A stretch of 64,000 nucleotides of DNA from an uncultured bacterium (GCA_937903605.1 CALCZC010000007.1:124459-188458); one strand, 5' to 3'. Shown: positions 6,936-31,093, counted from the first letter of the stretch. Numbers and translations: made by a program. The notes: generated by a model not told the origin, from the sequence alone.

Positions 6936-6955
6936 CCTGCCTGTCGGCAGACAGG
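6936..6955. repeat. GC-rich palindrome, variant of the CCTGCCTRCCGGCAGGCAGG family
   Basis: cctgcctgtcggcagacagg lies immediately 5' of a MITE family-B copy. Confidence 0.7.
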
Positions 6956-6960
6956 ATACT

Positions 6961-7034
6961 GTCATTCCTGCGAAGGCAGGAATCCAGTGGCTATCTTAAT
7001 TTTTCCTGAGGATCCCCGCCTTCGCGGGGATGAC
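6961..7034. repeat. MITE-like element, family B (GTCATTCCTGC-hairpin-GAATCCAGTGG...TTTCCTG-GGATCC-hairpin-GATGAC)
   Basis: Second copy at 9759-9875 with the same termini and spacer motifs but different internal hairpin arms. Confidence 0.75.
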
Positions 7035-7123
7035 AATTGGGACTATTTTTAAATATCTTAATATCCAATATCCCAATATCTTTTTGGCTACATTTAGCCA
7101 AAATCACCAGTGCACACCCAATC

Positions 7124-7152
7124 TTGACTAAATCCCCGACTTATGTTAATAT
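7124..7152 (+). promoter_or_regulatory. Sigma70-like promoter for secE-nusG (TTGACT-17-TAATAT)
   Basis: cttgactaaatccccgacttatgttaatat lies 45 bp upstream of the secE ATG. Confidence 0.55.
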
Positions 7153-7196
7153 ATTAGTATAAATCGGCTGACAGGCCGTTTTTAAATACAAAAAAT

Positions 7197-7385
7197 ATGA
7201 TCGAAAAAATGATCCAATATTTCAAGGATTCTTACGCCGAGATGAAAAAAGTCACTTGGCCGACAAAAAAACAAACCATCAACTACAGCGCTTTGGTTAT
7301 CGCCATGAGCGTCGGGATGGCGGTGTTTTTTTCTGTTTTGGACTACGTGTTCAACTTGGGTTTAACCAAACTCATCACTCAGTAA
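7197..7385 (+). CDS. secE: Preprotein translocase subunit SecE
   Basis: A 62-aa protein with a single C-terminal TM, and ...KKVTWPTKKQT..., in the conserved position upstream of nusG. Confidence 0.8.
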   Translation: MIEKMIQYFKDSYAEMKKVTWPTKKQTINYSALVIAMSVGMAVFFSVLDYVFNLGLTKLITQ

Positions 7386-7411
7386 TTTATCTTAACTAAG
7401 GAGAAAATAAT

Positions 7412-7957
7412 ATGGCTAAACAAACGATGAATCTCGGTCGTCGCTGGTATGTACTACATACTTATAGCGGTTACGAAGAAAATGTAAAACACAATTTGGA
7501 ACAAAGAATCGCTTCTTTTGATATGCAAGATAGAATTTTTAATATTTTGGTTCCTAAAGAAAAGAAAATTAAAATAAAAAATGGCAAACGCACCACTGTA
7601 GAAGAAAAGATTTTTCCTGGTTATGTGCTTTGTGAGATGATTGTAACAGATGATTCTTGGTATGTTGTTCGCAACACTCCAAACGTTACCGGCTTTGTTG
7701 GTTCCGGCACTACTCCAACTCCTATAGACCAAAAAGAAATAGAAAGTTTAATGAAAAGAGTGTCTGCAGAAAATACTCAACAAAAAATTGATATGGAAGT
7801 TAGTGATATCGTTCGTATTGTTGATGGTCCTTTCAAAAATTTCGAAGGTAAGGTCAGTCATGTTGATGAAGAACGCGGTAAAATCAAAGTCATGGTTACT
7901 ATGTTCGGTCGTGAAACACCGGTTGAATTGGATGCTTTACAAGCTAAAAAGATTTAA
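7412..7957 (+). CDS. nusG: Transcription termination/antitermination factor NusG
   Basis: NGN domain (WYVLHTYSGYEENV) plus a C-terminal KOW (IVRIVDGPFKNFEGKVSHVDEERGKIKVMVTMFGRETPVELD). SD taaggag. Confidence 0.9.
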   Translation: MAKQTMNLGRRWYVLHTYSGYEENVKHNLEQRIASFDMQDRIFNILVPKEKKIKIKNGKRTTVEEKIFPGYVLCEMIVTDDSWYVVRNTPNVTGFVGSGTTPTPIDQKEIESLMKRVSAENTQQKIDMEVSDIVRIVDGPFKNFEGKVSHVDEERGKIKVMVTMFGRETPVELDALQAKKI

Positions 7958-8003
7958 TAATCAAACTACTGCCCTGGCAACAGGGGCTTCTCAGTAGACA
8001 AAC

Positions 8004-8092
8004 GTCATCCTGAGCGTAGCGAAGGATCCCTTAAACAAGGATTTAGGAAATAAGTTAAACTATAAGCGATTCTTCGCTTCGCTCAGAATGAC
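8004..8092. repeat. MITE-like element, family A, inverted copy, occupying the nusG-rplK spacer
   Basis: Reverse complement of the 1311-1406 copy. It supplies an in-frame ATG (8088) that falsely extends the rplK ORF in the ORF track. Confidence 0.8.
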
Positions 8093-8120
8093 AAAATTAA
8101 AAATTAAAAATTGCTTTACT

Positions 8121-8546
8121 ATGGCAAAAAAATTACTTACTCAAATCAAATTGCAAATCATGGGTGGCGCCGCCAACCCAGCACCACCGGTTGGTCCGGC
8201 TTTGGGTCAACATGGGGTAAATATCGCCGGATTTTGTAAAGAATTCAACGATAAAACTCAAGATAAAAAAGGTGAAGTCGTACCAGTGGTTATCTCTGTA
8301 TACGATGATAGAAGTTTTTCTTTCATCATGAAAACTGCACCGGTTGCCGAACTTATCAAAAAAGCCGCTAAAATCAGTAAGGGTTCAGCCAAACCTTTAC
8401 AAGAAAAAGTTGGCAAATTGACTAAAGCTCAAGTTCGCGAAATCGCCGAGAAAAAACTTTCCGATTTAAACGCTAGTGATGTTGAAGCTGCCATGAAAAT
8501 GGTAGAAGGCACTGCCAGACAAATGGGTGTAACGATTGAGGGATAA
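8121..8546 (+). CDS. rplK: 50S ribosomal protein L11
   Basis: [43 protein letters not shown]... The start is set at the ATG giving the canonical MAKK N-terminus. The ORF-track start at 8088 lies inside the MITE. Confidence 0.9.
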
Positions 8547-8559
8547 AATAAATTCAACA

Positions 8560-8591
8560 AAAATAACGGTCTTACGACCGTTATTTTTTTG
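8560..8591 (+). terminator. Rho-independent terminator after rplK (no rplA follows)
   Basis: Hairpin aacggtcttacgaccgtt followed by a T-run. Confidence 0.75.
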
Positions 8592-8628
8592 TTCTATCAA
8601 TCTTTAAATCTTATAATCTTGAAATCTT

Positions 8629-9741
8629 TTAATATAGTAGCATTGCATCTCCAAAACTATAAAATCTATAGTCTTCTTTTACCGCTTCTTCATAACATTT
8701 GAGCATAAATTCTCGATCATCGGCAAAAGCGCAAACTAACATCAGCAAAGTGCTTTTTGGTAAATGAAAATTGGTAATCAAAGCATCAATCACTTGAAAT
8801 TTAAAACCTGGAATAATAAAAAGATTTATATCTCCTTGAAAAGATTTTATTAATCTTTTATCTTTAGAGTCTTTATTTATTTCTGCCAAACCTTCCAAAG
8901 TGCGGACTGTGGTGGTGCCCACGGCAATTATTCTCCTACCTTGTGCCTTGGCATCATTTATCAGACTGGCATTTTTATCAGTCACTTCTACCCATTCATG
9001 GTGCATTTTATGATTTTCCAATTTTTCAGTTTTAACCGGTTGAAAAGTACCTAAACCGACATGTAAAGTAACTTCAGCAAAATCTACACCCTTTTGTTTT
9101 ATTTTTTCAATCAATTCCGGTGTAAAATGAAAACCGGCTGTTGGTGCGGCTACCGAACCCTCATTTTTTGCATATACAGTTTGATATTTATCATTTAGTT
9201 CATCTTGGGTAATATTAATATTTTTGATATATGGCGGAGTTGGTACTTCACCATATTTATTGGCTTTGGCACGAACATTAAAATCACTGTCGTTAAAATC
9301 AACCAAAACAGTGCCATCCGTATCTTTGAGCAATACTTCGGCAACAAAATCCGTAGCAAAAACTATTTTCATTCCCAAACGTAGTCGCTTCCCCGGTTTA
9401 GCTAGCACTTTCCAAATACCTTCATTTTCCGAAGGTCTTAACAGAAAAACTTCTACTGGTTTCAAATTGAGAATTTTATTGGTTGACTTTCTGTCTTTGA
9501 GATTATCTGACCTCTGATCAAGCTTGATTTCTCCTTTTAACCTCGCTTTAAAAACTTTGGAATTGTTCCACACTACCAAATCTCCAGGTTGCAGGTAATC
9601 CAAAATATCAGTAAATTTTTTGTGTTCAACGGTTTTTTCTTCTTTATTAATTACCATCAAACGTGAAGAATCCCGAGGCTCTGCCGGAGCTTGAGCGATA
9701 TTTTTAACGGGCAGGTTGTAGTCGAAGTCGGAAGTATGCAT
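8629..9741 (-). CDS. queA: S-adenosylmethionine:tRNA ribosyltransferase-isomerase
   Basis: MHTSDFDYNLPVKNIAQAPAEPRDSSRLMV... and C-terminal ...TLLMLVCAFADDREFMLKCYEEAVKEDYRFYSFGDAMLL. Confidence 0.85.
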   Translation of the reverse strand: MHTSDFDYNLPVKNIAQAPAEPRDSSRLMVINKEEKTVEHKKFTDILDYLQPGDLVVWNNSKVFKARLKGEIKLDQRSDNLKDRKSTNKILNLKPVEVFLLRPSENEGIWKVLAKPGKRLRLGMKIVFATDFVAEVLLKDTDGTVLVDFNDSDFNVRAKANKYGEVPTPPYIKNINITQDELNDKYQTVYAKNEGSVAAPTAGFHFTPELIEKIKQKGVDFAEVTLHVGLGTFQPVKTEKLENHKMHHEWVEVTDKNASLINDAKAQGRRIIAVGTTTVRTLEGLAEINKDSKDKRLIKSFQGDINLFIIPGFKFQVIDALITNFHLPKSTLLMLVCAFADDREFMLKCYEEAVKEDYRFYSFGDAMLLY

Positions 9742-9758
9742 AAAAAGTTTTTTATTTT

Positions 9759-9875
9759 GTCATTCCTGCAGGCCAAAGGCCTCCCTTTGGGAAACGCGAA
9801 GAATCCAGTGGTTTTATTAAAATTTTCCTGGATCCCTGCTGTAGTTTATACCCGCTTGACGGGTGCAGGGATGAC
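9759..9875. repeat. MITE-like element, family B copy
   Basis: gtcattcctgcaggccaaaggcc...gaatccagtgg...ttttcctggatccctgc...gcagggatgac. Confidence 0.75.
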
Positions 9876-9890
9876 ACTTTATTTCAATTT

Positions 9891-10760
9891 TTACTTTAAA
9901 TATCTCACCTTATATATGTTATGTTGTTCTAGCGTTTTAGAGTAGTATATATTTCCATCATTATCGCTCAAAAAATACCAATAATCGTTTTTTTCCGGAT
10001 AAATTACCGCTTTTATAGCAGTTAAACTAGGGTTGGCTATAGGTCCTGGGGGTAAACCGCGATATTTGTAAGTATTATAAGGCGAATCTATCTGTGTGTC
10101 TGCAAGCGATACGGCCGGAGTGGTTTTGCCGGTAATATAATTGACTGTAGCACAAGATTGTAAAGCCCATTTCATATTGAGACGTCGCCAAAAAATATCT
10201 GCTACTTTGGCCATACTAGTAGCGTCCGGTGCTTCTTTTTCTACGATTGAAGCCATGGTCAAAATTTCAAAAAAAGTTTTATTTTGTCGTGTTATTTCTT
10301 CCCTCATTTCCGGAGTTATTTTCTTTTCCAAATTTTCAAAAATTTTTCTGAGTATTTCTTCCGGTTTGGCGTCTTTATAAATACGATAAGTATCAGGATA
10401 TATAAAACCCTCGTAAGAAGAGTTTTTTTCTTTTTCTTTTAAAATGGAAAAATCTGGAAAAAGCCCGGTAAGATCTGGAGCAGAGTTTCCCAATCCCCCG
10501 TATTTATGAGCCGGTTTTCCAAAAAGATTATAAATTTCTTCTTCGTTTTTAAACAATCCTTTAGATACCCAATCAGCGGCTACTTGTCGCAAAGTCCAGC
10601 CTGGAATAATGGTAATATTTATTTCCTCTCGTGGCGGAGCCATTTTTTTCTTTGCTTCCTCAGCTGCTTTGTGTTTTTGATAACCAAAAAAACCGACCGC
10701 TAAAGGCAGGCCAATAAGTATGAGTATAGAAATGCTTATTATTTTGTTATTGAAAGACAT
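9891..10760 (-). CDS. mltG: Endolytic murein transglycosylase MltG (YceG family)
   Basis: N-terminal TM plus a YceG-like domain ...DSPYNTYKYRGLPPGPIANPSLTAIKAVIYPEKNDYWYFLSDNDGNIYYSKTLEQH. Confidence 0.8.
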   Translation of the reverse strand: MSFNNKIISISILILIGLPLAVGFFGYQKHKAAEEAKKKMAPPREEINITIIPGWTLRQVAADWVSKGLFKNEEEIYNLFGKPAHKYGGLGNSAPDLTGLFPDFSILKEKEKNSSYEGFIYPDTYRIYKDAKPEEILRKIFENLEKKITPEMREEITRQNKTFFEILTMASIVEKEAPDATSMAKVADIFWRRLNMKWALQSCATVNYITGKTTPAVSLADTQIDSPYNTYKYRGLPPGPIANPSLTAIKAVIYPEKNDYWYFLSDNDGNIYYSKTLEQHNIYKVRYLK

Positions 10761-10765
10761 GAAAA

Positions 10766-10845
10766 TAAATATTAAATATTGGATATTGAATATTAAAAAA
10801 ATTTAAACGGTTTACTAATATTCAATATTTAATATTCAGTATTAT
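10766..10845. repeat. AT-rich inverted-repeat array (aatattgaatatt / aatattcaatatt), one of three
   Basis: Same motif arrays at 50321-50398 and 58624-58722. All are intergenic. Confidence 0.6.
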
Positions 10846-11537
10846 TCGTTCCAATTCTCTCTCGCCCATTCCAATCTCTCCGGTACGCCAATGTCTATCC
10901 AATCACCATCAAAAGTATAAACATCCAGCTCTTTCATCTTGGGAAAAACATCATATTCTACGCTAAAACTATTTAACTCTTTAGGAAAATGTTCGTGGGC
11001 TTTGTGTGTAAAAAGATAAATACCTCCATTTATATATCCAGGAATATTTTTACCTTCTTTTTCTTTAAATTCCAGCAGATTATTTTTTTCATCAAATAAT
11101 AAAGTACCATAAGTACTGGAATCTTCTACGCGAGCCCCGAGCAATAATCCTTCTTTATCCGGATTTAATCTGGTTAACATTTCTCGTAAATTTACTCCTG
11201 TTAAAATATCCCCGTTTAATACGAATGTCGGCAGATGTGGATCTTTTAAATGTGAGAAAGCGAATTTAATAGCACCACCAGTTCCTAAACGTTCTTTTTC
11301 TATCGCATAAATTAGTTTTACTCCATTTCTTTCTTCACCAACGGTATTTTTCAAAACTTCGGAAAGATGGCCTGCAGCCAAAACAACTTCATTTAGACCT
11401 ATTTCTTTAATTTTTTCCAACTGCCAATCTAAAACCGTTTTACCTTTTATTTCTAGTAAAACCTTAGGGATAGATTTGGTTATATCTTTTAGTCTAGTGG
11501 ATAATCCACCACAAAGGATGATTGCATTCATAATCAA
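10842..11537 (-). CDS. Sugar-phosphate nucleotidyltransferase (NTP_transferase family)
   Basis: AIILCGGLSTRLKDITKSIPKVLLEIKGKTVLDWQLE...GTGGAIKFA is a typical G-rich pyrophosphorylase signature. Confidence 0.75.
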   Translation of the reverse strand: MIMNAIILCGGLSTRLKDITKSIPKVLLEIKGKTVLDWQLEKIKEIGLNEVVLAAGHLSEVLKNTVGEERNGVKLIYAIEKERLGTGGAIKFAFSHLKDPHLPTFVLNGDILTGVNLREMLTRLNPDKEGLLLGARVEDSSTYGTLLFDEKNNLLEFKEKEGKNIPGYINGGIYLFTHKAHEHFPKELNSFSVEYDVFPKMKELDVYTFDGDWIDIGVPERLEWARENWNE

Positions 11538-11538
11538 G

Positions 11539-12075
11539 CTAAAAGGTAAAATTTAAAATAAACAAAAAATAATACATAATCAAACTGGAAACCAAGGCGG
11601 TTAAAAATCCAGCTAGGGCGTCCAATGGATAATGTACTCCACAATAAACCCTTCCCCAAACTACCCATAAAGCCAGAACAAACAAGCCGCTGATATAAGG
11701 TAATCCAAAAATTATAGCTAGAAAAAAAATAAGAAAAGCGGTCATAGCATGATCTGAAGGAAATGATTTCCAAGCCATCACTGGAGTAAACAGTTGTTTT
11801 ATTTCCGGCATTTGCACCTGGGGACGATTTTCTTTTATCAAAAAAGCTATTGCTAAATCCAGCAACCAGGCAAAAATCCAAGCTATAGGTAATGCTAATA
11901 ATCTAGTATACAACTTTTCTAAAGTCGAAGAACTGACCATAACAGATACAAAATACCAGCCGGCCATGGCAATAATAACAAATTCCGCCCCAGCTTTACC
12001 AAAAGAGTCCAGCCATTTATTTTTACCTATTAATTTGTTTATTTTTAGAAAAATTTTAGTATTTAAATCCATCAT
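11539..12075 (-). CDS. PAP2-family membrane phosphatase (phosphatidic acid / undecaprenyl-diphosphate phosphatase type)
   Basis: Multi-TM protein with PAP2 motifs KENRP...SFPSDHA...YCGVHYPLD. It abuts the nucleotidyltransferase gene and is co-oriented with it. Confidence 0.75.
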   Translation of the reverse strand: MMDLNTKIFLKINKLIGKNKWLDSFGKAGAEFVIIAMAGWYFVSVMVSSSTLEKLYTRLLALPIAWIFAWLLDLAIAFLIKENRPQVQMPEIKQLFTPVMAWKSFPSDHAMTAFLIFFLAIIFGLPYISGLFVLALWVVWGRVYCGVHYPLDALAGFLTALVSSLIMYYFLFILNFTF

Positions 12076-12087
12076 ATATTTTTTGCT

Positions 12088-12116
12088 ATTTTACCAATAA
12101 ATAAATGTTTTGGCAA
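12088..12116 (-). promoter_or_regulatory. Sigma70-like promoter (TTGCCA-17-TAAAAT) for the PAP2-nucleotidyltransferase unit
   Basis: Minus strand reads tttgccaaaacatttatttattggtaaaat. Confidence 0.5.
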
Positions 12117-12172
12117 ACTTGAAGACTACTTGCCAAAAAATAAAAAATACGCTAATATTTATTCACATTTAC

Positions 12173-12229
12173 GCGCCCATAGCCTGCCTGCCGGCAGGCA
12201 GGCTCAGTGGTTAGAGCACTGCCCTTATA
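12173..12229 (+). pseudogene. Degenerate 5' half of the downstream tRNA (through the anticodon loop), with a 21-bp palindrome inserted in the D-arm
   Basis: gcgcccatagc[ctgcctgccggcaggcaggct]cagtggttagagcactgcccttata, then divergent sequence. Compare the intact tRNA at 12272. Confidence 0.65.
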
Positions 12230-12271
12230 TTCGCTAAATGAGTAGTAAAACACAAATTTGCCGTGCGCCAA

Positions 12272-12344
12272 GCGCCCATAGCTCAGTGGTTAGAGCACTG
12301 CCCTTATAAGGCAGGGGTCGATGGTTCAAGTCCATCTGGGCGCA
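12272..12344 (+). tRNA. tRNA with anticodon UAU (reads AUA, Ile). Cloverleaf is intact and CCA is not encoded.
   Basis: Acceptor gcgccca/tgggcgc, D-stem gctc/gagc, anticodon stem ctgcc/ggcag with loop cttataa, T-arm gatgg-ttcaagt-ccatc, discriminator a. Confidence 0.75.
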
Positions 12345-12437
12345 CGACAAATTTGTATTTTCTGCGAATGGCGCGAATATATCATCTACGCTCGAAGAAA
12401 ATAAAAATAAATTTTTGCTTTACTTCTCGCTTGATGA

Positions 12438-12480
12438 TATAAGGCAAGGGTCGATGGTTCAATTCCATCTGGGCGCACCA
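12438..12480 (+). pseudogene. Degenerate 3' half-copy of the same tRNA (anticodon loop to CCA)
   Basis: tataaggcaagggtcgatggttcaattccatctgggcgcacca, with 3-4 mismatches to the intact gene and an encoded CCA. Confidence 0.65.
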
Positions 12481-12499
12481 AATAGTGTATAGAAAAGAT

Positions 12500-13465
12500 A
12501 TGGAAAAAATAAAAAAATTGATTGTCAAAAATACCGACGCTTATCAGCGTCTGGATTTGTTTTTAACGGAAAAATTGAACATTAGTCGCTCGCAAGTACA
12601 AAAAATGATTGAGAACAATCAAATTTTTATCAACGATATAGCCCCTAAAAAAACCGGTGAAAAAATTTCCACCAATGATATTGTTACTGTTTCAACCTTT
12701 AAAATCAGTAAACAAGAAAAAAAAGAAAACTTAATAAAAAAAGAAAGCGATGTTTCTTTACGTCCGGAAATAATCGCTGAAGAAAAAGATTTTTTAATAG
12801 TTAACAAACCATCCGGATTACTTACACATAACACGGAAAAAGAAGATTATTCGATGGCCGAATTTTTGGTTAAAAAATATCCAGAAATAAAACATGTCGG
12901 TGAAGATAAAAGCAGACCTGGCATAGTTCATCGCCTAGATAAAGAGGCTTCCGGTTTATTGGTTGTCGCACGCACTCAAGAAATGTTTGATTTTTTAAAA
13001 AAACAATTTCAAGACAGAACTATTGAAAAGGAATATTTTGTTTTGGTTCATGGGCAAGTTTCTGCCGATACTGCAATAATTGATTTTCCGCTTGAAAGAG
13101 GAAAAAACAATGAACGCATGGCCGCTTTACCTAAAATTGTCAAAGGAATAGAGAACGAAAAAGGAAAGGACGCTATAACAGAATTTTGGGTAGAAAAAAG
13201 ATTTGTCAATTTTTCTTTTCTAACCGTTAAAATTCACACCGGCCGTATGCATCAAATCCGCGCCCACTTTTTGGCCTATGATCATCCGGTAGTCGGAGAT
13301 ACTCTTTACTTTCAAAAAAAACAAAAACGAAAATGGGATGACGAACTTGGGAGATTATTTTTACACAGTTATAAATTGGAGTTTACGGATCTACAAGGCG
13401 AGAGAAAACATTATGAAATAGAGTTACCGGACGAATTAAAAGATTTTTTAAAGAAATTAAAATGA
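12500..13465 (+). CDS. RluA/RluD-family 23S rRNA pseudouridine synthase (S4 domain plus catalytic domain)
   Basis: HRLDKEASGLLVVARTQEMFDFLKKQFQDRTIEKEYFVLVHG contains the catalytic Asp motif. The start is set at ATG 12500 rather than the GTG at 12485 used by the ORF track. Confidence 0.8.
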   Translation: MEKIKKLIVKNTDAYQRLDLFLTEKLNISRSQVQKMIENNQIFINDIAPKKTGEKISTNDIVTVSTFKISKQEKKENLIKKESDVSLRPEIIAEEKDFLIVNKPSGLLTHNTEKEDYSMAEFLVKKYPEIKHVGEDKSRPGIVHRLDKEASGLLVVARTQEMFDFLKKQFQDRTIEKEYFVLVHGQVSADTAIIDFPLERGKNNERMAALPKIVKGIENEKGKDAITEFWVEKRFVNFSFLTVKIHTGRMHQIRAHFLAYDHPVVGDTLYFQKKQKRKWDDELGRLFLHSYKLEFTDLQGERKHYEIELPDELKDFLKKLK

Positions 13466-13470
13466 TACAA

Positions 13471-13593
13471 AAATCCCAATTCCCAAATCCCAATGACCAA
13501 TCAAATCCTAAATCCCAAACCCTAAAAATATTTGGTCATTTGAACATTAGTCATTCATTGGGCATTGGACATTGGGGCTTAGTCATTAAAAAC
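13471..13593. repeat. Interspersed element built from cccaat/tcccaaatccc direct repeats and ttggtcattgg / ccaatgaccaa inverted repeats
   Basis: A related copy at 25433-25570 also contains the GC palindrome. Confidence 0.6.
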
Positions 13594-13633
13594 ATTCCAA
13601 TTTAAAAAAACCAAATTATAAATTGATATTATT

Positions 13634-14209
13634 ATGACAAAAAAAGGTTTACTTGTGATTATTTCCGCCCCATCCGGCAACGGCAAAGACACTGTTATTG
13701 AAGCTCTCTTAAAAATTATTCCGAATTCCACCAGATTTATTACCACCACTTCTCGCCCACCGCGTCCCGGCAACCAGGAAGGTGTAGATTATTATTTTAT
13801 TTCCAAGGAAGAATTTGAAAACAAAATAAAAAATAATGAATTTCTGGAATATAATTTTTACGCCGGAAATTATTATGGCACGGAAAAAAAACGTTTAGAA
13901 GAAATGCTCTCGAATCACTCTGTTGTATTCTCCGCTATTGAAGTCAACGGCAAACATAATTTGGATAAAGCCAAAGTTAAAAACCTTTCTATTTTCCTAT
14001 TACCGGACAGCCTGGAAATTCTCAAAAATCGCATTCGTCAAAGGGGTGGAGTAAGTGAGGAGATAATAGAAGAAAGGATGAAAACAGCTAAATATGAAAT
14101 AGAAAATTCTCTAGACTATGACTACAGGATAGTCAACGAAAATGGTAAATTAGACGAAACTATTGATAAATTAGCCAAAATTATCCTTTCTGAAATCGCC
14201 AAAAGCTGA
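13634..14209 (+). CDS. gmk: Guanylate kinase
   Basis: P-loop SAPSGNGKDT, then ...TTTSRPPRPGNQEGVDYYFISKEEFE... Confidence 0.85.
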   Translation: MTKKGLLVIISAPSGNGKDTVIEALLKIIPNSTRFITTTSRPPRPGNQEGVDYYFISKEEFENKIKNNEFLEYNFYAGNYYGTEKKRLEEMLSNHSVVFSAIEVNGKHNLDKAKVKNLSIFLLPDSLEILKNRIRQRGGVSEEIIEERMKTAKYEIENSLDYDYRIVNENGKLDETIDKLAKIILSEIAKS

Positions 14210-14213
14210 AATA

Positions 14214-14242
14214 TTGACAAAAAAACAAATTTAGGCTAAGAT
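14214..14242 (+). promoter_or_regulatory. Sigma70-like promoter for rplS (TTGACA-17-TAAGAT)
   Basis: attgacaaaaaaacaaatttaggctaagat. Confidence 0.5.
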
Positions 14243-14276
14243 AATAGCACTTTATTAATTTTCAAACAGTTTTAAT

Positions 14277-14618: not shown

Positions 14619-14671
14619 GTTGAAAGTATAAAGTTGAAAGTTAAAAGTTATAGGATTTTTAAAAATAAACT

Positions 14672-14706: not shown

Positions 14707-14759
14707 TATATAAATCTAGAAAACATCTAACTTTCTACTTTCTACTTTTGACTTTACAC

Positions 14760-24477: not shown

Positions 24478-24516
24478 AAGCAAATAAGCCGATAAGCTTA
24501 TAAGCTAGTAAGCAAC

Positions 24517-24548
24517 AAAAAACTTCGCTGATTAGGCGAAGTTTTTTA
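24517..24548. terminator. Bidirectional terminator (same hairpin sequence as 5890-5921)
   Basis: aaaaaacttcgctgattaggcgaagttttttaaa. Confidence 0.8.
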
Positions 24549-24558
24549 AATTTATTTT

Positions 24559-24774
24559 TTATTCTTCAGGATCACTATCCGGAGTATCTGCAAAATCTCT
24601 ATTTGATGCAAAATTTCCACTCATCTTTCTTTCTTTTGAAGTAGGCTTAATCTCGCCTCTTTCTACTTTTTTCTTATAATCTTCATAAAGCTTTCTTGAT
24701 TCTTCTTGTTCTTTAGGTGTTAAATCTGGCAAGGGCCTTTTTTCACCTCTCGAACCAAAACTAAAATTTCCCAT
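24559..24774 (-). CDS. Small (71 aa) charged hypothetical protein with its own consensus promoter
   Basis: MGNFSFGSRGEKRPLPDLTPKEQEESRKLYEDYKKKVERGEIKPTSKERK... It sits between a canonical promoter at 24817-24845 and the terminator at 24517-24548. Confidence 0.5.
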   Translation of the reverse strand: MGNFSFGSRGEKRPLPDLTPKEQEESRKLYEDYKKKVERGEIKPTSKERKMSGNFASNRDFADTPDSDPEE

Positions 24775-24816
24775 ATTTTTATATTTAAAAATTAAATATT
24801 TCTAAAATACCTGTAT

Positions 24817-24845
24817 ATTATAGCATAAAAAGGCGGTTTTGTCAA
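24817..24845 (-). promoter_or_regulatory. Consensus sigma70 promoter (TTGACA-17-TATAAT)
   Basis: Minus strand reads ttgacaaaaccgcctttttatgctataat. Confidence 0.6.
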
Positions 24846-24887
24846 TTTAAACAACAAAAGCACCCGTTTTGGGTACTTTTGTTATAT

Positions 24888-25356
24888 GTTTCGCTCAAAG
24901 CTATAAGCCGAATTTCGTCTACCCGTTTTTAAATTAAAAACGAGGAGATGGTCATTTATCTTGTCGGTCACATCACTGCGCCGATCTTTGCGAGCTAACT
25001 TTCTGAATTCCTGACTAAAAAGTCGGAAAACATTGCTCTTGCGCCAGGCAGGGTTTGGCACGTTTTGGCATTGCTGCCAATCGAGTATGATAGCCCATAT
25101 ATAAGACCTTCATACACTTTTCACCTTTGGCGAGGAAAAATCCTCGTTAGTATAGTCTCTGTGCCACTTTCCCTTTTACATTGTTACCAATGCAACGGCG
25201 GGTATTACCCGCTACCCCTTACCTTTCAGACAAACGAGACCTCTAAAAACCAAGAAATTCTTAATTTTTAGCCTGTCTATAATTGCTTGCCGATAGAGGC
25301 GTTCGGACTTTCCTCTCGGGTCGTATTCCGACCCAAGCGACCATCCGCTTTGAACC
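24888..25356 (-). ncRNA. rnpB: RNase P RNA (bacterial type A-like)
   Basis: Minus strand contains the P4 5' strand GAGGAAAGUCCGAAC, then GGUAAUACCCGCC, AAGGUGAAA, ACCCUGCCUGGCGCAAG (E. coli has ACUCCACCCGGAGCAAG), and the P4 3' strand ACGAAAUUCGGCUUAUAG. A P1 pairing guucaaagc/gcuuugagc closes the molecule. The region is about 50% GC in an AT-rich context and has no protein ORF. Confidence 0.75.
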
Positions 25357-25432
25357 TTACCACTATATCATAATTTTTTACTTTTGTCAAGAGTGTTGGG
25401 TTTTATTTGTGCTAACTATAGCAAAAAATATA

Positions 25433-25570
25433 AAATCCCAATGTCCAAATCCCAATTCCCAATCAAGGCCCAATGCCTAAATGATCAAATATTTTTAAGA
25501 TTTTGGGCTTAGGATTTGACCTGCCTACCGGCAGGCAGGTTGGTCATTGGTCATTAGGGTTTGGTCATTT
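25433..25570. repeat. Second copy of the cccaat/ttggtcattgg element, here with the GC palindrome ACCTGCCTACCGGCAGGCAGGT (25518-25539) embedded
   Basis: aaaatcccaatgtccaaatcccaattcccaat...acctgcctaccggcaggcaggttggtcattggtcatt. Confidence 0.6.
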
Positions 25571-25643
25571 GAGCTCTTTGACTTTATGTGATTTTTGTAA
25601 TAAAATATCATTAACTTGATTTATTTATTTTTCTTCATTTTGT

Positions 25644-27062
25644 ATGAAGCGTTTCGAACTTTTTTTTACCTTTCTCCAGCTTCCTATTGATTATCTTATG
25701 ATAGTTTTGGCCGGATTTTCCGCCTATAGTCTTCGTTATACCGAATTTATCAAAAGCATTCGCCCGATAATGTTTGATCTGACTTGGCACACTTATTGGC
25801 CTATAGTTCTTCTGGTTGCCGGAGTTTGGATAATCATCTTTGCTTTTTCCGGACTTTATCATGCCGATCCCAATCGTCGCTTACTCAAAGACATTAATCG
25901 CATCTTCTTTGCCTGCGCCACCGGATTTGCCGGTATCACAATCTATGTATTTTTTACTTTGCAAAAATTTGATTCTCGTTTTCTGGTTTTGATGGGATGG
26001 ATTTTGGCGGTTGTTTATGTGATTTTTGCTCGTGCCATTATTCGCGGTCTAAAAATATTTTTATACAGTCGCGGTTTTGGTTTACGCAAAACCGTGATTA
26101 TAGGAGCTCAAAATATCGCTCTTCGCTTAATGGAAAATATAAATAATCAACCGATGCTTGGTTATAAACTGGTCGGTAATTTTGAAACTTTTAATGAAGA
26201 AATTGCCAATAAAATAAAAAATCTCAAACCTGATGATATTATTTTTGCCGATCCTAAGGCCAATCAAGAAGAAGCTCTCTCAGCCATAGATTTTGCCAAC
26301 GAACACCATCTATCTTTCAAATATTCCGCTGATCTACTTGATACCATTACCTCCAACATTTCACTTAGTACAATTGACGACATACCGATTATTGAACTTC
26401 GTCGAACCAGACTAAATGTCTGGGGTAGAATTTTCAAACGAATTTTGGATATTATTGGTAGTTTGATTTTAATAATAATTTTTTCTCCAATTTATCTAGT
26501 TGTTTCTTTGATAATACTCATAGAAACCGGGCGACCGATAATTTATAAAAACGAAAGAGTCGGACAAAAAGGAATTTTATTTTTTACTTACAAATTTCGT
26601 TCCATGTATCAGAAATATTGCACCGGCAAACAGTTTGGCTCTCAAGGTCAAGAAGCTTTGGAAAAAGAAAAAGAACTGATAAAAGAATTGAACACCAAAA
26701 AAGGCCCGGTTTACAAAATAGAAAACGATCCGCGTGTCACACCTTTTGGCCGTTTTATCCGTCGCTGGAGTTTGGATGAATTTCCTCAATTTTTCAATGT
26801 TTTTATCGGCAATATGAGCTTAGTCGGACCTCGTCCGCACCAACCGCGCGAAGTGGAAAAATATAAAAAACATCACAAAATAGTTTTGGCTATCAAACCT
26901 GGCATTACCGGTCTGGCACAAATTTCCGGACGCAGCGACCTGAGTTTTGAAGACGAAATCAAACTGGATACTTTTTATATTGAAAACTGGAGGTTGCTGC
27001 TAGACTTTATTATTCTAATTAAAACACCCTTTGTAGTTTTGAGTCGCAAGGGAGCGAAATAA
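25644..27062 (+). CDS. Polyprenyl-phosphate glycosylphosphotransferase (WbaP/CpsE-type initiating sugar transferase)
   Basis: N-terminal TMs plus a C-terminal bacterial sugar transferase domain ...PIIYKNERVGQKGILFFTYKFRSM...LDEFPQFFNVFIGNMSLVGPRPHQP... Confidence 0.85.
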   Translation: MKRFELFFTFLQLPIDYLMIVLAGFSAYSLRYTEFIKSIRPIMFDLTWHTYWPIVLLVAGVWIIIFAFSGLYHADPNRRLLKDINRIFFACATGFAGITIYVFFTLQKFDSRFLVLMGWILAVVYVIFARAIIRGLKIFLYSRGFGLRKTVIIGAQNIALRLMENINNQPMLGYKLVGNFETFNEEIANKIKNLKPDDIIFADPKANQEEALSAIDFANEHHLSFKYSADLLDTITSNISLSTIDDIPIIELRRTRLNVWGRIFKRILDIIGSLILIIIFSPIYLVVSLIILIETGRPIIYKNERVGQKGILFFTYKFRSMYQKYCTGKQFGSQGQEALEKEKELIKELNTKKGPVYKIENDPRVTPFGRFIRRWSLDEFPQFFNVFIGNMSLVGPRPHQPREVEKYKKHHKIVLAIKPGITGLAQISGRSDLSFEDEIKLDTFYIENWRLLLDFIILIKTPFVVLSRKGAK

Positions 27063-27110
27063 AAAAATTTTAGATTTAAGATTTTTGATTTTAGATTACG
27101 AACAAAGACC

Positions 27111-27207
27111 GTCATCCTGATCCTGCCTAGGCGGAGAAGGATCCCTTAAACAAGGCTTTAAGAAATAAGTTAAACTATACGGGATTCTTCGTTTCACTCA
27201 GAATGAC
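27111..27207. repeat. MITE-like element, family A, third copy
   Basis: gtcatcctgatcctgcctaggcggagaaggatcccttaaacaagg...cactcagaatgac. Confidence 0.8.
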
Positions 27208-27234
27208 GAGCTGTTCATCGGATTATAATATTTT

Positions 27235-28353
27235 ATGAACATCGCATTAGTCCATGATTATTTAGCGCAAGACGGGGGCGCAGAAAAAGTTTTGAAAGCC
27301 CTCCACGAAATTTGGCCGGAGGCGCCAATTTTTGTTTTATTTCATGATGAAAAAAAACTAGAGCAATTTAAAAAAGAACAAGTTAAAGAAAGTTTTTTGA
27401 AAAACTTTCCTTTTATTCACTCTCATTATCAATGGTATCTGCCTTTTATGCCAATAGCGATAGAACGATTGGATCTAAAAAATTTTGATTTGGTAATTTC
27501 CAGCACTTCTCTCTTTGCCAAAGGAGTAATAACAACCCCGTCCACTCTACACATTTCTTATTGTCACACTCCTCCTCGATTTTTGTGGTCAGATACTCAT
27601 AAGTATCTCAGTGATTTTCGTTATAATTTTTTTATAAAACTTTTTTCTCCCAATTTTATTCATCGCTTACGTTTGTGGGATAAAATGAGTGCTGACCGTG
27701 TGGATGAGTTTATCGCCAATTCTTTTACTGTCGCCAAACGTATTCAAAAATTTTACCGCCGTGAAGCAACCATTATTAATCCACCGGTGGAAACAGAAAA
27801 ATTCAAAATTTCTCCTACTCTTGGTGATTATTATCTTTGCGGGGGCAGATTGGTGCCTTACAAAAAAATAGATTTGGTCATCAAGGTCTTTAATCGCCTG
27901 GGAAAACCCTTAAAAATATTTGGTGACGGACCTGAATTAAAACATTTAAAAAAGGTAGCTAAATCAAATATTGAATTCCTGGGTCGCATTACCGAAGATC
28001 AAAAAACAGATTTGATGAGTAAAGCCTTGGCTTTTATCAACCCTCAATTGGAGGATTTTGGCATTACCGCGATAGAAAGCATGGCTGCCGGAAGACCGGT
28101 CATAGCTTATGGTGTTGGTGGGGCGGGAGAAACTGTTATCGATGGTGAAACCGGCATTCTTATTAAAAACCAGACTTGGGAAAGTCTTTTTGACACCATT
28201 TTAAATTTTCATCCCGAAAATTGGGACAGTGCCAGGATTCGTGCACATGCGGAAAAATTTAGTGAAGAAATTTTTAAAGAAAAAATGCAACGATTTGTGA
28301 CTGATAAGTATGAGGAATTTAAGAAAGGACTCATCCAAAATAAACTATTTTAA
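27235..28353 (+). CDS. GT4-family glycosyltransferase
   Basis: MNIALVHDYLAQDGGAEKVL... plus the C-terminal EDFGITAIESMAAGRPVIA motif. Confidence 0.8.
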   Translation: MNIALVHDYLAQDGGAEKVLKALHEIWPEAPIFVLFHDEKKLEQFKKEQVKESFLKNFPFIHSHYQWYLPFMPIAIERLDLKNFDLVISSTSLFAKGVITTPSTLHISYCHTPPRFLWSDTHKYLSDFRYNFFIKLFSPNFIHRLRLWDKMSADRVDEFIANSFTVAKRIQKFYRREATIINPPVETEKFKISPTLGDYYLCGGRLVPYKKIDLVIKVFNRLGKPLKIFGDGPELKHLKKVAKSNIEFLGRITEDQKTDLMSKALAFINPQLEDFGITAIESMAAGRPVIAYGVGGAGETVIDGETGILIKNQTWESLFDTILNFHPENWDSARIRAHAEKFSEEIFKEKMQRFVTDKYEEFKKGLIQNKLF

Positions 28354-28361
28354 AATTACCT

Positions 28362-29492
28362 ATGAATATAGGTGTTGATATCCGCCCGCTCCTGTCCCCT
28401 GTTCGTACCGGAGTCGGCGAATATACATTTGAGCTTCTCAACGCAATATTCCAAATTGATAAACAAAATCAATATTTTTTATTTTATAATTCTTATAAAG
28501 ACTTGGATAAATATTTACCAAGCTGGAAATACGAAAATGTCCGTTTTATAAAAAAAAATTGGTCAAACAAGCTTTTCAATTTTTGCCAAAAATTTCTAAA
28601 CTGGCCAAAAATAGATCTTTTTGTAGCCAAAGAATTCTCTTTGGAAAAACTGGATTATTTTTTTTCTCCTAATCTAAATTTTACTGCTTTGAGTAAAAAA
28701 CCCAAGAAAATTCTAACTATCCACGATCTCTCTTTTGATTTTTTTCCAGAATATCTTTCTTTTAAACAAAAACTTTGGCACCTCTTTATCAACCCTAAAA
28801 AGCAATGTTTTGGCGCCGACATAATACTGGCCCCGAGCAAAAACACCAAAAGAGATCTAATAGATTTTTATAATCTGTCTGAAAACAAAATCCGCACAAT
28901 TTATCCGGGGCTTTCTTCTATTTTTCAAAATATCACTGAAAACAAAAAAAATTTGAATTTGCCGGACAATTATATTTTATTTTTGGGAGCTCTCGAACCT
29001 CGCAAAAATATCCTAGGAGTTATTGAAGCTTATGAAAAAGCTTTTACTCGCTTATCTCTCCCGTATCATTTGGTAATTGCCGGCGCACCTGGATGGAAAA
29101 ATAAAGAAATCTTTGAAAAAATAGAGGGTTCTCCGTTAAAACAAAAAATAACTTTCATCGGTTATGTGAAAAACGAAGATAAACCGGAACTTTATCGTCG
29201 AGCGAGTATTTTTGTTTATCCTTCATTTTATGAGGGTTTTGGTTTTCCTGTTTTAGAAGCTATGTATTGTCATGTTCCAGTCATAACAAGCAATGTATCC
29301 TCTCTGGTAGAAATAACTTCAAAAAACGCTTACTTGGTAGATCCTAATAAACCGGAGCAGATATCTGACGGCTTAATCAAAATACTTAATAAACAAAATA
29401 TAAAAAATAATTTAATATCAAAAGCTAAAATCCGATCTGAAAAATTTTCTTGGAGCTCATCAGCAAAAGATTTTTTGAATATTTTAAAATAA
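28362..29492 (+). CDS. GT4-family glycosyltransferase
   Basis: ...YVKNEDKPELYRRASIFVYPSFYEGFGFPVLEAMYCHVPVITSN... Confidence 0.8.
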   Translation: MNIGVDIRPLLSPVRTGVGEYTFELLNAIFQIDKQNQYFLFYNSYKDLDKYLPSWKYENVRFIKKNWSNKLFNFCQKFLNWPKIDLFVAKEFSLEKLDYFFSPNLNFTALSKKPKKILTIHDLSFDFFPEYLSFKQKLWHLFINPKKQCFGADIILAPSKNTKRDLIDFYNLSENKIRTIYPGLSSIFQNITENKKNLNLPDNYILFLGALEPRKNILGVIEAYEKAFTRLSLPYHLVIAGAPGWKNKEIFEKIEGSPLKQKITFIGYVKNEDKPELYRRASIFVYPSFYEGFGFPVLEAMYCHVPVITSNVSSLVEITSKNAYLVDPNKPEQISDGLIKILNKQNIKNNLISKAKIRSEKFSWSSSAKDFLNILK

Positions 29493-29526
29493 AATAAGAC
29501 CCTTGGTAAAGGGTCTTTGTTTTTAG
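29492..29526. terminator. Bidirectional terminator
   Basis: aaaataagacccttggtaaagggtctttgtttttag. Confidence 0.75.
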
Positions 29527-29537
29527 TAGCTACAAGG

Positions 29538-29768
29538 CTACATTTCTTTTATGACAAAACCTTCCATTATTTTGTCTTCTTCTTTGCTATTGACCGGTTC
29601 CTGGCTGATGACTCCGCATGTTTTACAATTCATTTTCCTCCACAATGTCCCCACACACATAGCATAATAGGCTACATGGGGAACGGGTTTTTTTTCTTTA
29701 CCACTGCATTGACCGCAAATACGATCAACTTCTTCAGTTTCCTTTTTCTTCAAAAGAGGTTTGGTCAT
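29538..29768 (-). CDS. Small zinc-ribbon protein (76 aa), antisense-embedded between glycosyltransferase genes. It belongs to the same C-x2-C...W-[NR]...C-x2-C family as 43279 and 43618.
   Basis: MTKPLLKKKETEEVDRICGQCSGKEKKPVPHVAYYAMCVGTLWRKMNCKTCGV... The start is set at the internal Met of the 176-aa track ORF because that ORF overlaps the GT start. A strong SD (ttggaggcgccaATG) and a canonical promoter at 29821-29849 support this start. Confidence 0.5.
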   Translation of the reverse strand: MTKPLLKKKETEEVDRICGQCSGKEKKPVPHVAYYAMCVGTLWRKMNCKTCGVISQEPVNSKEEDKIMEGFVIKEM

Positions 29769-29820
29769 TGGCGCCTCCAAAGACAGGTTGGGTGATTTGT
29801 CGAAAGAACAAGAAGAAACT

Positions 29821-29849
29821 ATTTTATCCCTCTTTTTTTTGTTTGTCAA
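29821..29849 (-). promoter_or_regulatory. Consensus sigma70 promoter (TTGACA-17-TAAAAT) driving the antisense zinc-ribbon gene
   Basis: Minus strand reads ttgacaaacaaaaaaaagagggataaaat. Confidence 0.55.
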
Positions 29850-29917
29850 ATTTATCCAATCAATCAATTCGGAAAAAACTTGGCTTAACCAAAAATTTAC
29901 ATTATACTTAAAACAAT

Positions 29918-31093
29918 ATGAAAATAGGGATAGATGCGCGCCTATACGGTCCAAAACAGGGCGGCTTAGGACGATATCTACAACAATTGATAGAAGGACT
30001 AGAAAAAACGGATTTGCAAAACGATTACGTAGTTTTTTTGCGTCAAGAAAATTTTTTCGCCTATACACCCGTCAATCCTCGTTTCAAAAAGGCACTGGCC
30101 GATATCCCATGGTATGGCTGGCAAGAGCAAATTTTACTGCCTAGAATTTTGAAAAAAGAAAATTGTGATTTTGTCCATTTTCCCCACTGGAATATCCCTG
30201 TTTTTTATAACAAAAAATTTATAGTCACCATTCACGATCTAATTTTGTTCCATTATCCAAGTCGCCAATCCAGCACCTTGGGACCGTTGAAATATTTTTT
30301 TAAAAATCTCGCCTATAGATTTATTTTGCGTCATGCGGTTAAAAAAGCCACTCAAATAATAACCCCAAGTAATTTTACCAAACAGGATGTAACTAAAAAC
30401 CTACACGTTCCGGAAGAAAAAATCACCGTAACATATCTTGCCCCTGTCTTAAAAAATAATATCCAATATCCAACCTTGCCTACCGGCAGGCAGGTATCCA
30501 ATACTAACAACCAACAAAATAATGATAAAAACCAAAAAATCCTTCAAAAACATGGGATAACCAAAAATTACCTGTTATATGTCGGTGTTGCTTATCCTCA
30601 CAAAAACCTGGAACGTCTGGTTAGAGCTTGGAAAATGTTTGAGAAACAAAACAAAAATTTTCAACTTGTTCTGGTTGGCAAAAAAAATTATTTTTACGAT
30701 CGCTTGATAAATTCCGAAATTTTCAAAAGTTGTAAAGATGTCATTTTTACCGATTTTATTCTTGATGAGAATCTAGTTGATATTTACAAAAACTCCAGCG
30801 CTTATATTTTTCCGTCTTTATACGAAGGTTTCGGACTACCGCCGCTTGAAGCTATGCAATATGGCATCCCGGTTATTTCTTCAAATAAAACCTGTCTCCC
30901 AGAAATTTTGGGAGATGTCGCTTTATATTTTGAGCCGCAAAATGAACAAGATATTTGTTCAAAAATCAATCTTATTTTAACCGATTCAGATACACGCCAA
31001 AAACTTATCAACAACATACCGGATATTTTGTCTAAATATAGCCAAAAAAATACCGCTGAAACTACTTTATCGGTTTATAAAAAAATGGTATAA
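29918..31093 (+). CDS. GT4-family glycosyltransferase carrying an in-frame palindromic-repeat insertion
   Basis: MKIGIDARLYGPKQGGLGRY... and ...SLYEGFGLPPLEAMQYGIPVISSN. The insert YPTLPTGRQVSNTNNQQNNDKNQ is encoded partly by accttgcctaccggcaggcaggt (30473-30495). Confidence 0.8.
   Translation: MKIGIDARLYGPKQGGLGRYLQQLIEGLEKTDLQNDYVVFLRQENFFAYTPVNPRFKKALADIPWYGWQEQILLPRILKKENCDFVHFPHWNIPVFYNKKFIVTIHDLILFHYPSRQSSTLGPLKYFFKNLAYRFILRHAVKKATQIITPSNFTKQDVTKNLHVPEEKITVTYLAPVLKNNIQYPTLPTGRQVSNTNNQQNNDKNQKILQKHGITKNYLLYVGVAYPHKNLERLVRAWKMFEKQNKNFQLVLVGKKNYFYDRLINSEIFKSCKDVIFTDFILDENLVDIYKNSSAYIFPSLYEGFGLPPLEAMQYGIPVISSNKTCLPEILGDVALYFEPQNEQDICSKINLILTDSDTRQKLINNIPDILSKYSQKNTAETTLSVYKKMV

Follow-up and report, generated by a model that had tools for sequence, protein, structure and literature searches.

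The subject of this analysis is P, a GC-rich 20-nt palindrome present in four copies in a 64,000-nucleotide stretch of DNA from an uncultured bacterium (GCA_937903605.1 CALCZC010000007.1:124459-188458; this 64-kb stretch is hereafter the window, and positions are counted from its first letter). P is probably a non-autonomous mobile hairpin and the cognate DNA partner of a small GIY-YIG nuclease resembling the Ssn proteins described by Chenal et al. (2025, PMC11893778). The window has a G+C content of ~36% and, judged by homologues of one of its genes, a GT4 glycosyltransferase, appears to derive from a Candidatus Magasanikbacteria-like member of the Patescibacteria.

A search of the window with CCTGCCTRCCGGCAGGCAGG, allowing up to 3 mismatches, returned four P sites, all at the places named in a preliminary description that had reported four dispersed GC-rich palindromes; 100 dinucleotide-preserving shuffles of the window gave no match (expected 0, observed 4). 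The sites are as follows.

6936-6955, no strand: P copy 1, CCTGCCTGTCGGCAGACAGG, a decayed variant with 2 mismatches, intergenic, 5 nt upstream of an Ssn-related hairpin motif.
12183-12202, no strand: P copy 2, a perfect CCTGCCTGCCGGCAGGCAGG, in the D-arm of an orphan 5' half of a tRNA-Ile(TAT) gene.
25520-25539, no strand: P copy 3, the asymmetric A variant CCTGCCTACCGGCAGGCAGG, in a 'cccaat' oligo-repeat palindromic element between the RNase P RNA and sugar transferase genes.
30475-30494, plus strand: the 20-mer of P copy 4, CTTGCCTACCGGCAGGCAGG, with 1 mismatch, inside the GT4 gene.
30474-30494, plus strand: the whole GT4 insert, 21 nt, CCTTGCCTACCGGCAGGCAGG, consisting of the A variant plus one T and encoding PTGRQVS.

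As single-stranded DNA (ssDNA), the perfect copy is predicted to fold into a strong hairpin (-12 kcal/mol, z = -4.2), and the decayed copies 1 and 4 fold at -6 and -5.3 kcal/mol, respectively. The copy 1 variant recurs in other genomes (L149, L197, L208, L240), and no Rfam family covers P. The analysis also took in ~9 kb to the left of the window and ~5 kb to its right (~14 kb, for ~78 kb in all); the left-hand sequence holds a fifth P, a perfect one, ~0.9 kb from where the window begins (L263 13478-13497). In the same genome, a P-like 20-mer with 3 mismatches, CCCGCCTGCCGGAAGGCAGG, stands in frame in uvrB (L263 12552-12571), where it encodes RLPEGR and may be an old coding insertion. The four copies of the window itself are solitary or relic only, because its Pfam map shows no GIY-YIG, Y1 transposase or TnpB gene.

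The unit of insertion can be read directly at two of these sites, where filled and empty versions are available for comparison.

12173-12229, plus strand: orphan 5' half of tRNA-Ile(TAT), ending in the anticodon loop, its D-arm interrupted by P copy 2.
12272-12345, plus strand: intact tRNA-Ile(TAT), the 'empty-site' twin (ARAGORN; Rfam, 76.8 bits).
12438-12478, plus strand: orphan 3' half of the same tRNA-Ile, 95% identical to the intact gene and beginning in the anticodon loop.
29918-31093, plus strand: GT4 glycosyltransferase gene, with P copy 4 in frame in the inter-domain linker.

Aligned with the intact tRNA-Ile gene ~70 nt downstream, copy 2 interrupts ATAG^CTCAG by exactly 20 nt, and no base is duplicated or lost. 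The size of 22-24 bp originally given to the palindrome must therefore be corrected to 20 nt, the apparent 24-mer at 12181-12204 being a chance extension of the palindrome by the tRNA flank bases AG^CT. Joined, the two orphan halves would give a second complete tRNA; what separates them is a 209-nt segment with the intact gene inside it. The tRNA-Ile half carrying copy 2 is best interpreted as what remains of a GIY-YIG/tRNA cassette after loss of its open reading frame (ORF); the same tRNA-half architecture with the ORF retained is found at L058/L180, L099, L174 and about 27 other loci.

At the GT4 site, DNA alignment shows that the two closest syntenic relatives, L127 (84% identical) and L130 (78%), are empty, and that an identical 21-mer fills the site in a more distant relative, L129 (75% identical). 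The possibility that the motif is coding sequence conserved in the GT4 gene of all relatives thus fails. The filled site and its empty orthologues differ by the 21 nt alone, without a tRNA or cassette remnant, and the extra T of the insert keeps the reading frame. The in-frame position in the linker was correctly recognized at the outset; the extent assigned to the copy was not, as the insert comprises 21 nt encoding PTGRQVS rather than 30473-30495 encoding LPTGRQV. All 21 bases are unchanged between genes that are 25% diverged, which is improbable if the insert were neutral (0.75^21 ~ 0.002), and the distribution of filled and empty sites conflicts with the overall similarity of the relatives. 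Either P was constrained here and precisely lost more than once, or it was transferred between lineages. L127 in turn holds a P copy where the window has none; P is thus gained and lost between close relatives. The GT4 linker (around residue 186) is also a hot spot for other inserts, as one orthologue (P0007) has RLHPESVGTADGQV there and another (P0011) has PLNPAKPEFRDERNYLTGVNP, both of them further GC-rich insert families.

Across 46 comparisons of filled and empty sites (tRNA-Ile, GT4 and 44 tRNA loci in other genomes), no target-site duplication was seen, and across 124 copies neither target-site duplications nor palindrome-extending flanks exceeded chance. P is a unit of exactly 20 nt, inserted without duplication of its target.

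The lead toward an enzyme came from the tRNA-like contexts of P in unrelated genomes, which display a recurring architecture: an orphan tRNA 5' fragment with P in its D-arm, an ORF of ~80 aa encoding a GIY-YIG protein, and an intact tRNA of the same identity. Of 10 GIY-YIG ORFs detected in loci selected for P, 8 abut a P copy. When ORFs of at least 90 aa near 120 P copies were clustered, the largest family comprised 8 loci, and short GIY-YIG ORFs fell within a 4-locus cluster; no protein family other than GIY-YIG was enriched near these 120 copies, at 8 kb per locus.

The association was then approached from the other side, with 80 metagenome loci chosen only by similarity to the P-linked GIY-YIG protein and not by P (at least 517 relatives were confirmed). 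P, at up to 3 mismatches, is present in 56 of the 80, against ~0.005 expected in the 181 kb covered. It starts 31-85 nt upstream of the GIY-YIG ORF in 45 loci and lies 21-57 nt downstream in ~12, the gap between P and the start codon being 11-65 nt with a median of 27, and most of the P-negative loci carry a visibly derived P in which one base is deleted or another hairpin is nested. A tRNA gene is adjacent in 62 of the 80 loci, mainly tRNA-Arg or tRNA-Leu. Sixty loci are complete on both sides; in 40 of them, an intact tRNA starts at the end of the ORF or overlaps it, and 27 of the 40 have P in the upstream orphan 5' fragment. Other loci show the mirror arrangement, in which the intact tRNA lies upstream and P occupies the T-loop of an orphan 3' fragment on the downstream side. 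The cassette thus resides in tRNA gene duplications. When the flanks of P (10 + 8 nt) are joined, the resulting sequence is found without interruption in that locus's intact tRNA for 44 of 62 copies, which adds 44 independent clean 20-nt insertions to the two described above. The base at -1 of P, on the ORF strand, is A in 39 of 43 gene-linked copies. Tandem cassettes occur in L181, L193 and L251. P presence follows the phylogeny of the nuclease, with a nearest-neighbour concordance of 0.76 versus 0.57 under permutation (p = 0.0005) and one clade positive in 30 of 32 members. P is therefore coupled both physically and phylogenetically to one nuclease family, and physically to tRNA genes. This coupling, taken with the finding that a sister nuclease family cuts hairpin ssDNA (PMC11893778), favours the proposal that P may serve as a nuclease recognition site.

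Other loci of the collection display variations on the cassette. On a viral contig (L174 480-1420), an orphan tRNA-Lys half bearing P belongs to a GIY-YIG cassette that stands directly upstream of a second tRNA-Lys copy; the anticodon loop of that copy harbours a group I intron (Rfam, 86 bits), which carries an HNH-type ORF, so that two selfish elements are stacked on one tRNA gene. In L217 and L243, both of them beside tRNA-Glu, a nuclease subgroup without P has other hairpins, CGCGTCAAACGCG and GCACGTCTGACGTGC, in the same place, which suggests further nuclease/hairpin pairs. Neither the motif nor a GIY-YIG/tRNA/palindrome cassette was found in the full texts searched, a coverage to which most subscription journals do not belong.

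The P-linked nuclease is a stand-alone GIY-YIG protein of 77-88 aa that consists of the catalytic domain only (GIY-YIG is its sole Pfam match) and carries the motif ...YVG.T.D..RR...HN.G.NKTTKP..P........ARKREKYLKSGxGKEFLK, in which the customary Tyr, Tyr, Arg, His and Glu residues do not vary. The family comprises at least 7,950 clusters at 90% identity (E <= 0.001), and its members, among them proteins of Patescibacteria, Omnitrophota and Bacteroidota isolates, bear only the database names 'GIY-YIG nuclease family protein' or 'putative endonuclease'. An AlphaFold2 model shows a single domain (pLDDT 93.7); the folds closest to it are those of the UPF0213 proteins 1ZG2 and 1YWL, the nearest solved structures, and of the structure-specific nuclease Slx1. 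Alignment of the P-linked family with an SsnA-like family also collected here (~95 aa, REKQLKxWxRxWK, with the gene between two hairpin motifs) gave an hhalign probability of 98.7% and 35% identity over 69 columns; the two are homologous yet separable, and by sequence comparison the P-linked family is likely a sister of the Ssn ssDNA hairpin nucleases.

Ssn nucleases are single-domain GIY-YIG proteins (SsnA has 94 aa; cd10448) that bind the NTS/SRM hairpin repeat, CGTCATTCCCGCGMAVGCGGGAATCYRG, only as ssDNA and cut just upstream of the hairpin; binding depends most critically on the C that directly follows the hairpin on its 3' side, and Ssn genes are typically flanked by the repeat (PMC11893778). 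That report mentions neither tRNA nor a CCTGCC motif. The window contains six hairpins of the SRM type (GTCATYC...GRATC), at 1311-1335(+), 6961-6984(+), 7011-7034(-), 8004-8028(+), 8068-8092(-) and 27183-27207(-), two of which form an inverted pair beside P copy 1.

6961-7034: inverted pair of Ssn-related hairpin motifs, 6961-6984 on the plus strand (GTCATTCCTGCGAAGGCAGGAATC) and 7011-7034 on the minus strand (GTCATCCCCGCGAAGGCGGGGATC), found by motif scan with the consensus CGTCATTCCCGCGMAVGCGGGAATCYRG.

This pair replaces the MITE (a miniature transposable element with inverted repeats) formerly supposed to lie next to copy 1. Three of the six motifs end a repeat family of 72-83 nt (1306-1393, 8021-8097 and 27125-27207). 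Of 184 P copies, 9 have an SRM-like motif no more than 120 nt away, compared with 0.3% of control positions, a 15-fold excess, and P sits inside an SRM at the same position, GGGAA^TCCAG, in two independent genomes (the fifth P at L263 13478-13497 and L129 811-830). At the loci of the P-linked nuclease, SRM-like motifs are found beside only 5 of the 80; the two nuclease families thus have distinct partners, as expected of cognate pairs.

Copies of P extend well beyond this genome. Among species-representative genomes, more than 120 stretches contain the 20-mer without mismatch, where ~2 would be expected in 596 Gb at uniform composition, so the motif is far above chance frequency and the prospect that it might occur no more often than that has fallen away. 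The hosts include Patescibacteria, Saccharibacteria, Omnitrophota, Planctomycetota, gammaproteobacterial metagenome-assembled genomes (MAGs), Bdellovibrionales, Nitrospirota, Chloroflexota and Bacteroidota, the last with the cultured genera Winogradskyella, Olivibacter and Flagellimonas; 48 viral-contig stretches also carry exact P. The spread of P is thus cross-phylum. No conserved flanks or longer element were found around P, the flanks of different copies being unrelated. Long ORFs hold 12% of the copies versus 60% of random positions, and among 15 coding copies, 11 use the frame that gives LPAGRQ. P is nested exactly at the centre of another P in ~10 cases. One third of the copies are an asymmetric variant, TACCGGCA, which allows orientation: C follows at +1 in 43 of 57 oriented copies, and T never precedes at -1. 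Among the ~180 solitary copies, 8 have tRNA-like flanks. Taken together, the clean insertion against empty sites, the presence and absence among relatives, the nesting and the cross-phylum spread uphold the idea that P is a mobile palindromic element.

Several individual arrangements were also observed. Viral contig IMGVR_UViG_3300025106_000007 (L177 3916-4142) bears a head-to-tail array of at least 10 units of 21 nt (CATGCCTACCGGCAGGCAGG + C), a period equal to P plus its favoured 3' C. In L163 (2239-2330) and in L221 (upstream tRNA-Gly), P or a P-like palindrome occupies the variable loop of an otherwise complete tRNA, that of L163 still being called a 92-nt tRNA-Met by ARAGORN; in this position P may be tolerated as an artificial long variable arm. 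Oligo-repeat tracts like 'cccaat' flank P in many other phyla.

How might a nuclease and a hairpin of this kind spread together? In the scheme favoured here, the nuclease genes would act as selfish cassettes of ~300 nt lodged inside partial tRNA gene duplications, mostly of tRNA-Arg and tRNA-Leu. One tRNA copy would stay intact, and the orphan fragment would bear P in a loop, typically 11-65 nt before the start codon. By analogy with Ssn, the nuclease would bind the ssDNA hairpin of P, as it might form in incoming DNA, at replication forks or where strongly transcribed tRNA genes give R-loops, and cut adjacent to it. Cutting beside the hairpin could drive both the homing of cassettes into tRNA genes and the dispersal of P, which would also spread alone, non-autonomously and without target duplication. 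Its preferred targets would be sites 3' of an A and structured DNA (tRNA arms, Ssn-related hairpins and other P copies), with occasional tolerance in frame in protein linkers, usually as LPAGRQ. It is enticing to speculate that P in the orphan fragment breaks up a direct repeat that would otherwise delete the cassette, or that it protects the cut site.

That all of this amounts to a novel mobile system, in which a hydrolytic single-domain GIY-YIG ssDNA nuclease mobilises a 20-nt hairpin, bacteria's smallest known discrete mobile DNA, and its cassette colonises tRNA genes by partial duplication, is a tentative proposal that we would not yet back. If true, the targeting of conserved tRNA arms would explain how an identical 20-mer came to be found from Patescibacteria to Bacteroidota, Planctomycetota and phages. 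The favoured pairing of P with its nuclease, if it holds, would make tRNA genes the home of a minimal selfish cassette across phyla. There would also be a concrete cause for GC-rich hairpin inserts in AT-rich uncultivated genomes, including in-frame LPAGRQ peptides and pseudo-tRNAs that confuse annotation. The Ssn concept would be extended to a second, very large nuclease family with a different, exactly known hairpin, and the P-linked family would be a candidate source of a new site-specific ssDNA nuclease tool. A puzzle would come with it, namely how a hydrolytic nuclease gives rise to precise 20-nt insertions and apparently precise losses without duplication.

A number of observations weigh against the pairing of P with its linked nuclease. 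No P-linked GIY-YIG gene was found in the window or in the ~14 kb beyond its ends, and the only GIY-YIG gene nearby is of the SsnA type.

L264 15287-15583, minus strand: SsnA-like GIY-YIG gene, 98 aa, ~3.7 kb past the right end of the window.

This gene scores 141.8 bits on the SsnA-like profile versus 49.7 on the P-linked profile and is flanked by inverted SRM hairpins, each with a nested extra hairpin. In the loci selected for P, ~95% of copies have no nuclease gene within 8 kb, and the adjacency of P and nuclease could be indirect if P merely favours orphan tRNA fragments. A general preference for predicted hairpin loops is unsupported (24% of P versus 26% of controls), the structured targets that stand out being tRNA arms, SRMs and P itself. 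Finally, GIY-YIG enzymes hydrolyse DNA without a covalent intermediate, and cut-and-paste or copy-and-paste movement would need a ligation or repair activity.

In an alternative explanation, P is mobile and prefers structured DNA but is moved by a resident SsnA-type enzyme, a phage function or host repair, its adjacency to the P-linked genes reflecting the survival of P insertions in the neutral orphan tRNA fragments that the cassettes create. This explanation draws on the occurrence of P in SRMs and in the variable loops of otherwise complete tRNAs, on a genome that combines an SsnA-like gene with the lack of a P-linked (A4-type) gene in the ~78 kb examined, and on the distance of most P copies from any nuclease gene. 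It is nevertheless unlikely, since the occupancy of orphan fragments is very high (the 56 of 80 loci, and more if nested derivatives count), P presence tracks the nuclease clades, and the scarcity of SRM motifs at P-linked loci indicates distinct partners. There is a smaller chance still that P has no mobility of its own and that solitary copies are scars of deleted GIY-YIG cassettes or the first bases of abortive homing. P does lie at the cassette edge and at the tRNA junction, copy 2 of the window is exactly such a relic, and tandem cassettes exist; yet the filled and empty GT4 sites differ by 21 nt only, without a cassette remnant, most solitary copies lack tRNA-like flanks, and neither the central nesting of P in other P copies and inside SRMs nor the 21-nt tandem array of L177 is what scars would leave.

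Selection by the host, whether P served as a terminator, as a stem that stabilises mRNA or as the binding site of a protein, would account for the strong hairpin, for the position of gene-linked P shortly before the ribosome-binding region, from which a stem at the 5' end might lend stability to the nuclease mRNA, and for the 21/21 conservation of the GT4 copy. Such a motif, however, would not be expected in frame in coding sequence and in pseudo-tRNA fragments or as an exact 20-nt indel polymorphic among relatives, P is not followed by a T-tract, and origin in situ cannot give one and the same sequence in contexts and phyla that are unrelated; the explanation is accordingly very improbable. 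Least credible of all is a repetitive extragenic palindromic (REP)-like element mobilised by a Y1 transposase of the RAYT or IS200/IS605 TnpA type, even though P is a hairpin, lacks target duplications and is mostly extragenic (12% in long ORFs versus 60% at random). The IS200/IS605 partner suggested in the preliminary description did not materialize: neither TnpA nor TnpB is present in the window or enriched near the 120 other copies, where only the GIY-YIG family is enriched, and no Y1 (HUH) transposase appears in the Pfam map of the window or as an enriched gene in the 120 P loci, a weak test at 8 kb each. The REP tetranucleotide GTAG/CGTC is absent from the end of P, whose flanks are unconserved save for a bias against T at -1, and the same sequence recurs across phyla at low copy, unlike the species-specific REPs (PMC3733652, PMC2817692).

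Three further candidates were rejected. A transposon with 10-bp terminal repeats that leaves P on excision finds no separated half-sites in the window, the one extra half-site match being the RNase P RNA. Origin de novo from (CCTG)n foldback does not fit full 20-mers at sites without a CCTG seed, and longer versions are rare. An adapter or assembly artefact is at odds with the presence of P in genomes of isolates, in assemblies made independently and, in frame, within conserved genes of two species; P is not known to match any common sequencing adapter.

P is not the only GC-rich insert of the window. The preliminary description had also noted a separate GC-rich insert in miaB, which is borne out as a 36-nt element, and a second, intergenic one was found nearby.

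41927-41962, minus strand: 36-nt GC-rich in-frame insert in miaB, SPSSAREEDGVERE, behaving like P and of another sequence family; absent from syntenic L127.
40998-41039, no strand: 42-nt GC-rich hairpin insert, intergenic, core gtccgccagatagcggac; absent from L127.

In the 18 kb common to the window and L127, GC-rich hairpin inserts (P, the 42-mer and the miaB 36-mer) account for 3 of the 4 small window-specific indels. The core of the 42-mer resembles TCCGCCAGCTGGCGGA, which stands beside P in one gammaproteobacterial and one Saccharibacteria MAG (L020, L028). Between the RNase P RNA and sugar transferase genes, the window and two relatives each have an insert of their own: the 'cccaat' palindrome with P in the window (25432-25580), an oligo-repeat palindrome of tatgtattatgta in L130 (640-760), and an SRM pair with P in L129 (780-900). 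The RNase P RNA itself (24888-25356, minus strand; class A, 140.7 bits) is 469 nt long, with insertions of 107 nt (15 in the model) and 20 nt (4 in the model). The window has two 'cccaat' imperfect palindromes in opposite orientation, at 13470-13590 and 25432-25580 (75-nt arms, 77% complementary). Two larger segments, 37861-40070 and 41067-41722, are absent from syntenic L127, and their ORFs (37882-38745, 38895-39884 and 41098-41652) have no Pfam match. For the rest, the Pfam map consists of housekeeping genes and one weak rve-type transposase-like ORF, a minus-strand ORF of 298 aa at 56384-57280 with a weak helix-turn-helix and rve (DDE integrase core) match just under the Pfam cut-off; it is the sole transposase-like gene and unrelated to P.

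Among known systems, Ssn offers the closest likeness. In both, a very small GIY-YIG protein of one domain is paired with a hairpin repeat of 20-50 nt that stands by the gene and is dispersed in the genome; both occur in many phyla, their proteins are homologous, and the preference of P for a C 3' of the hairpin parallels the critical C of SsnA. The dispersal typical of Ssn-type repeats is found here too, as a 20-nt hairpin with 4 copies in 64 kb and a fifth outside; P flanks a single-domain GIY-YIG gene in other genomes, not in the window. P differs from the SRM in sequence, in being a perfect palindrome without an oriented flank, and in not matching the consensus CGTCATTCCCGCGMAVGCGGGAATCYRG; the P-linked proteins of 77-88 aa end in REKYLKSGxGKEFLK, whereas Ssn-type proteins have ~94-98 aa and carry REKQLKxWxRxWK; and the P-linked gene lies in a tRNA duplication, usually with one P upstream, in contrast to the SRM-gene-SRM order of Ssn genes. 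P and its nuclease thus look like a second hairpin/nuclease pair parallel to Ssn.

With REP sequences and REPINs, P shares the nature of a short GC-rich extragenic palindrome that is non-autonomous, linked with one trans-acting enzyme gene and free of target duplication. The enzyme partner of P is a hydrolytic GIY-YIG protein, however, and that of REPs an HUH Y1 transposase (RAYT); REPs are species-specific and number in the hundreds, whereas P is identical across phyla and usually low-copy. P does not have the terminal inverted repeats plus target-site duplication of a MITE, a derivative of DDE transposons, as no duplication was seen in the 46 comparisons. In being a GC-rich hairpin of AT-rich genomes that enters proteins and RNA genes, P also resembles the Rickettsia palindromic elements (RPEs) and the GC clusters and hairpin elements of yeast and sponge mitochondria. 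RPEs are 100-150 bp long and lineage-restricted, and the mitochondrial elements have no identified enzyme; P has 20 nt, many phyla and a candidate enzyme. The P-linked genes further recall SegB of phage T4, which lies in a tRNA gene cluster (PMC2330249), as selfish GIY-YIG genes among tRNA genes, and spread by break repair is plausible for the cassette. Seg proteins and I-TevI, however, have a modular build in which DNA binding falls to a domain of its own, and their substrate is double-stranded DNA, whereas the P-linked proteins are a bare catalytic domain with a dedicated hairpin repeat. P is thus grouped with the nuclease-associated hairpin repeats (Ssn/SRM, REP/RAYT), a group in which its perfect 20-nt palindrome, cross-phylum identity, home in tRNA genes and in-frame tolerance in proteins are unusual.

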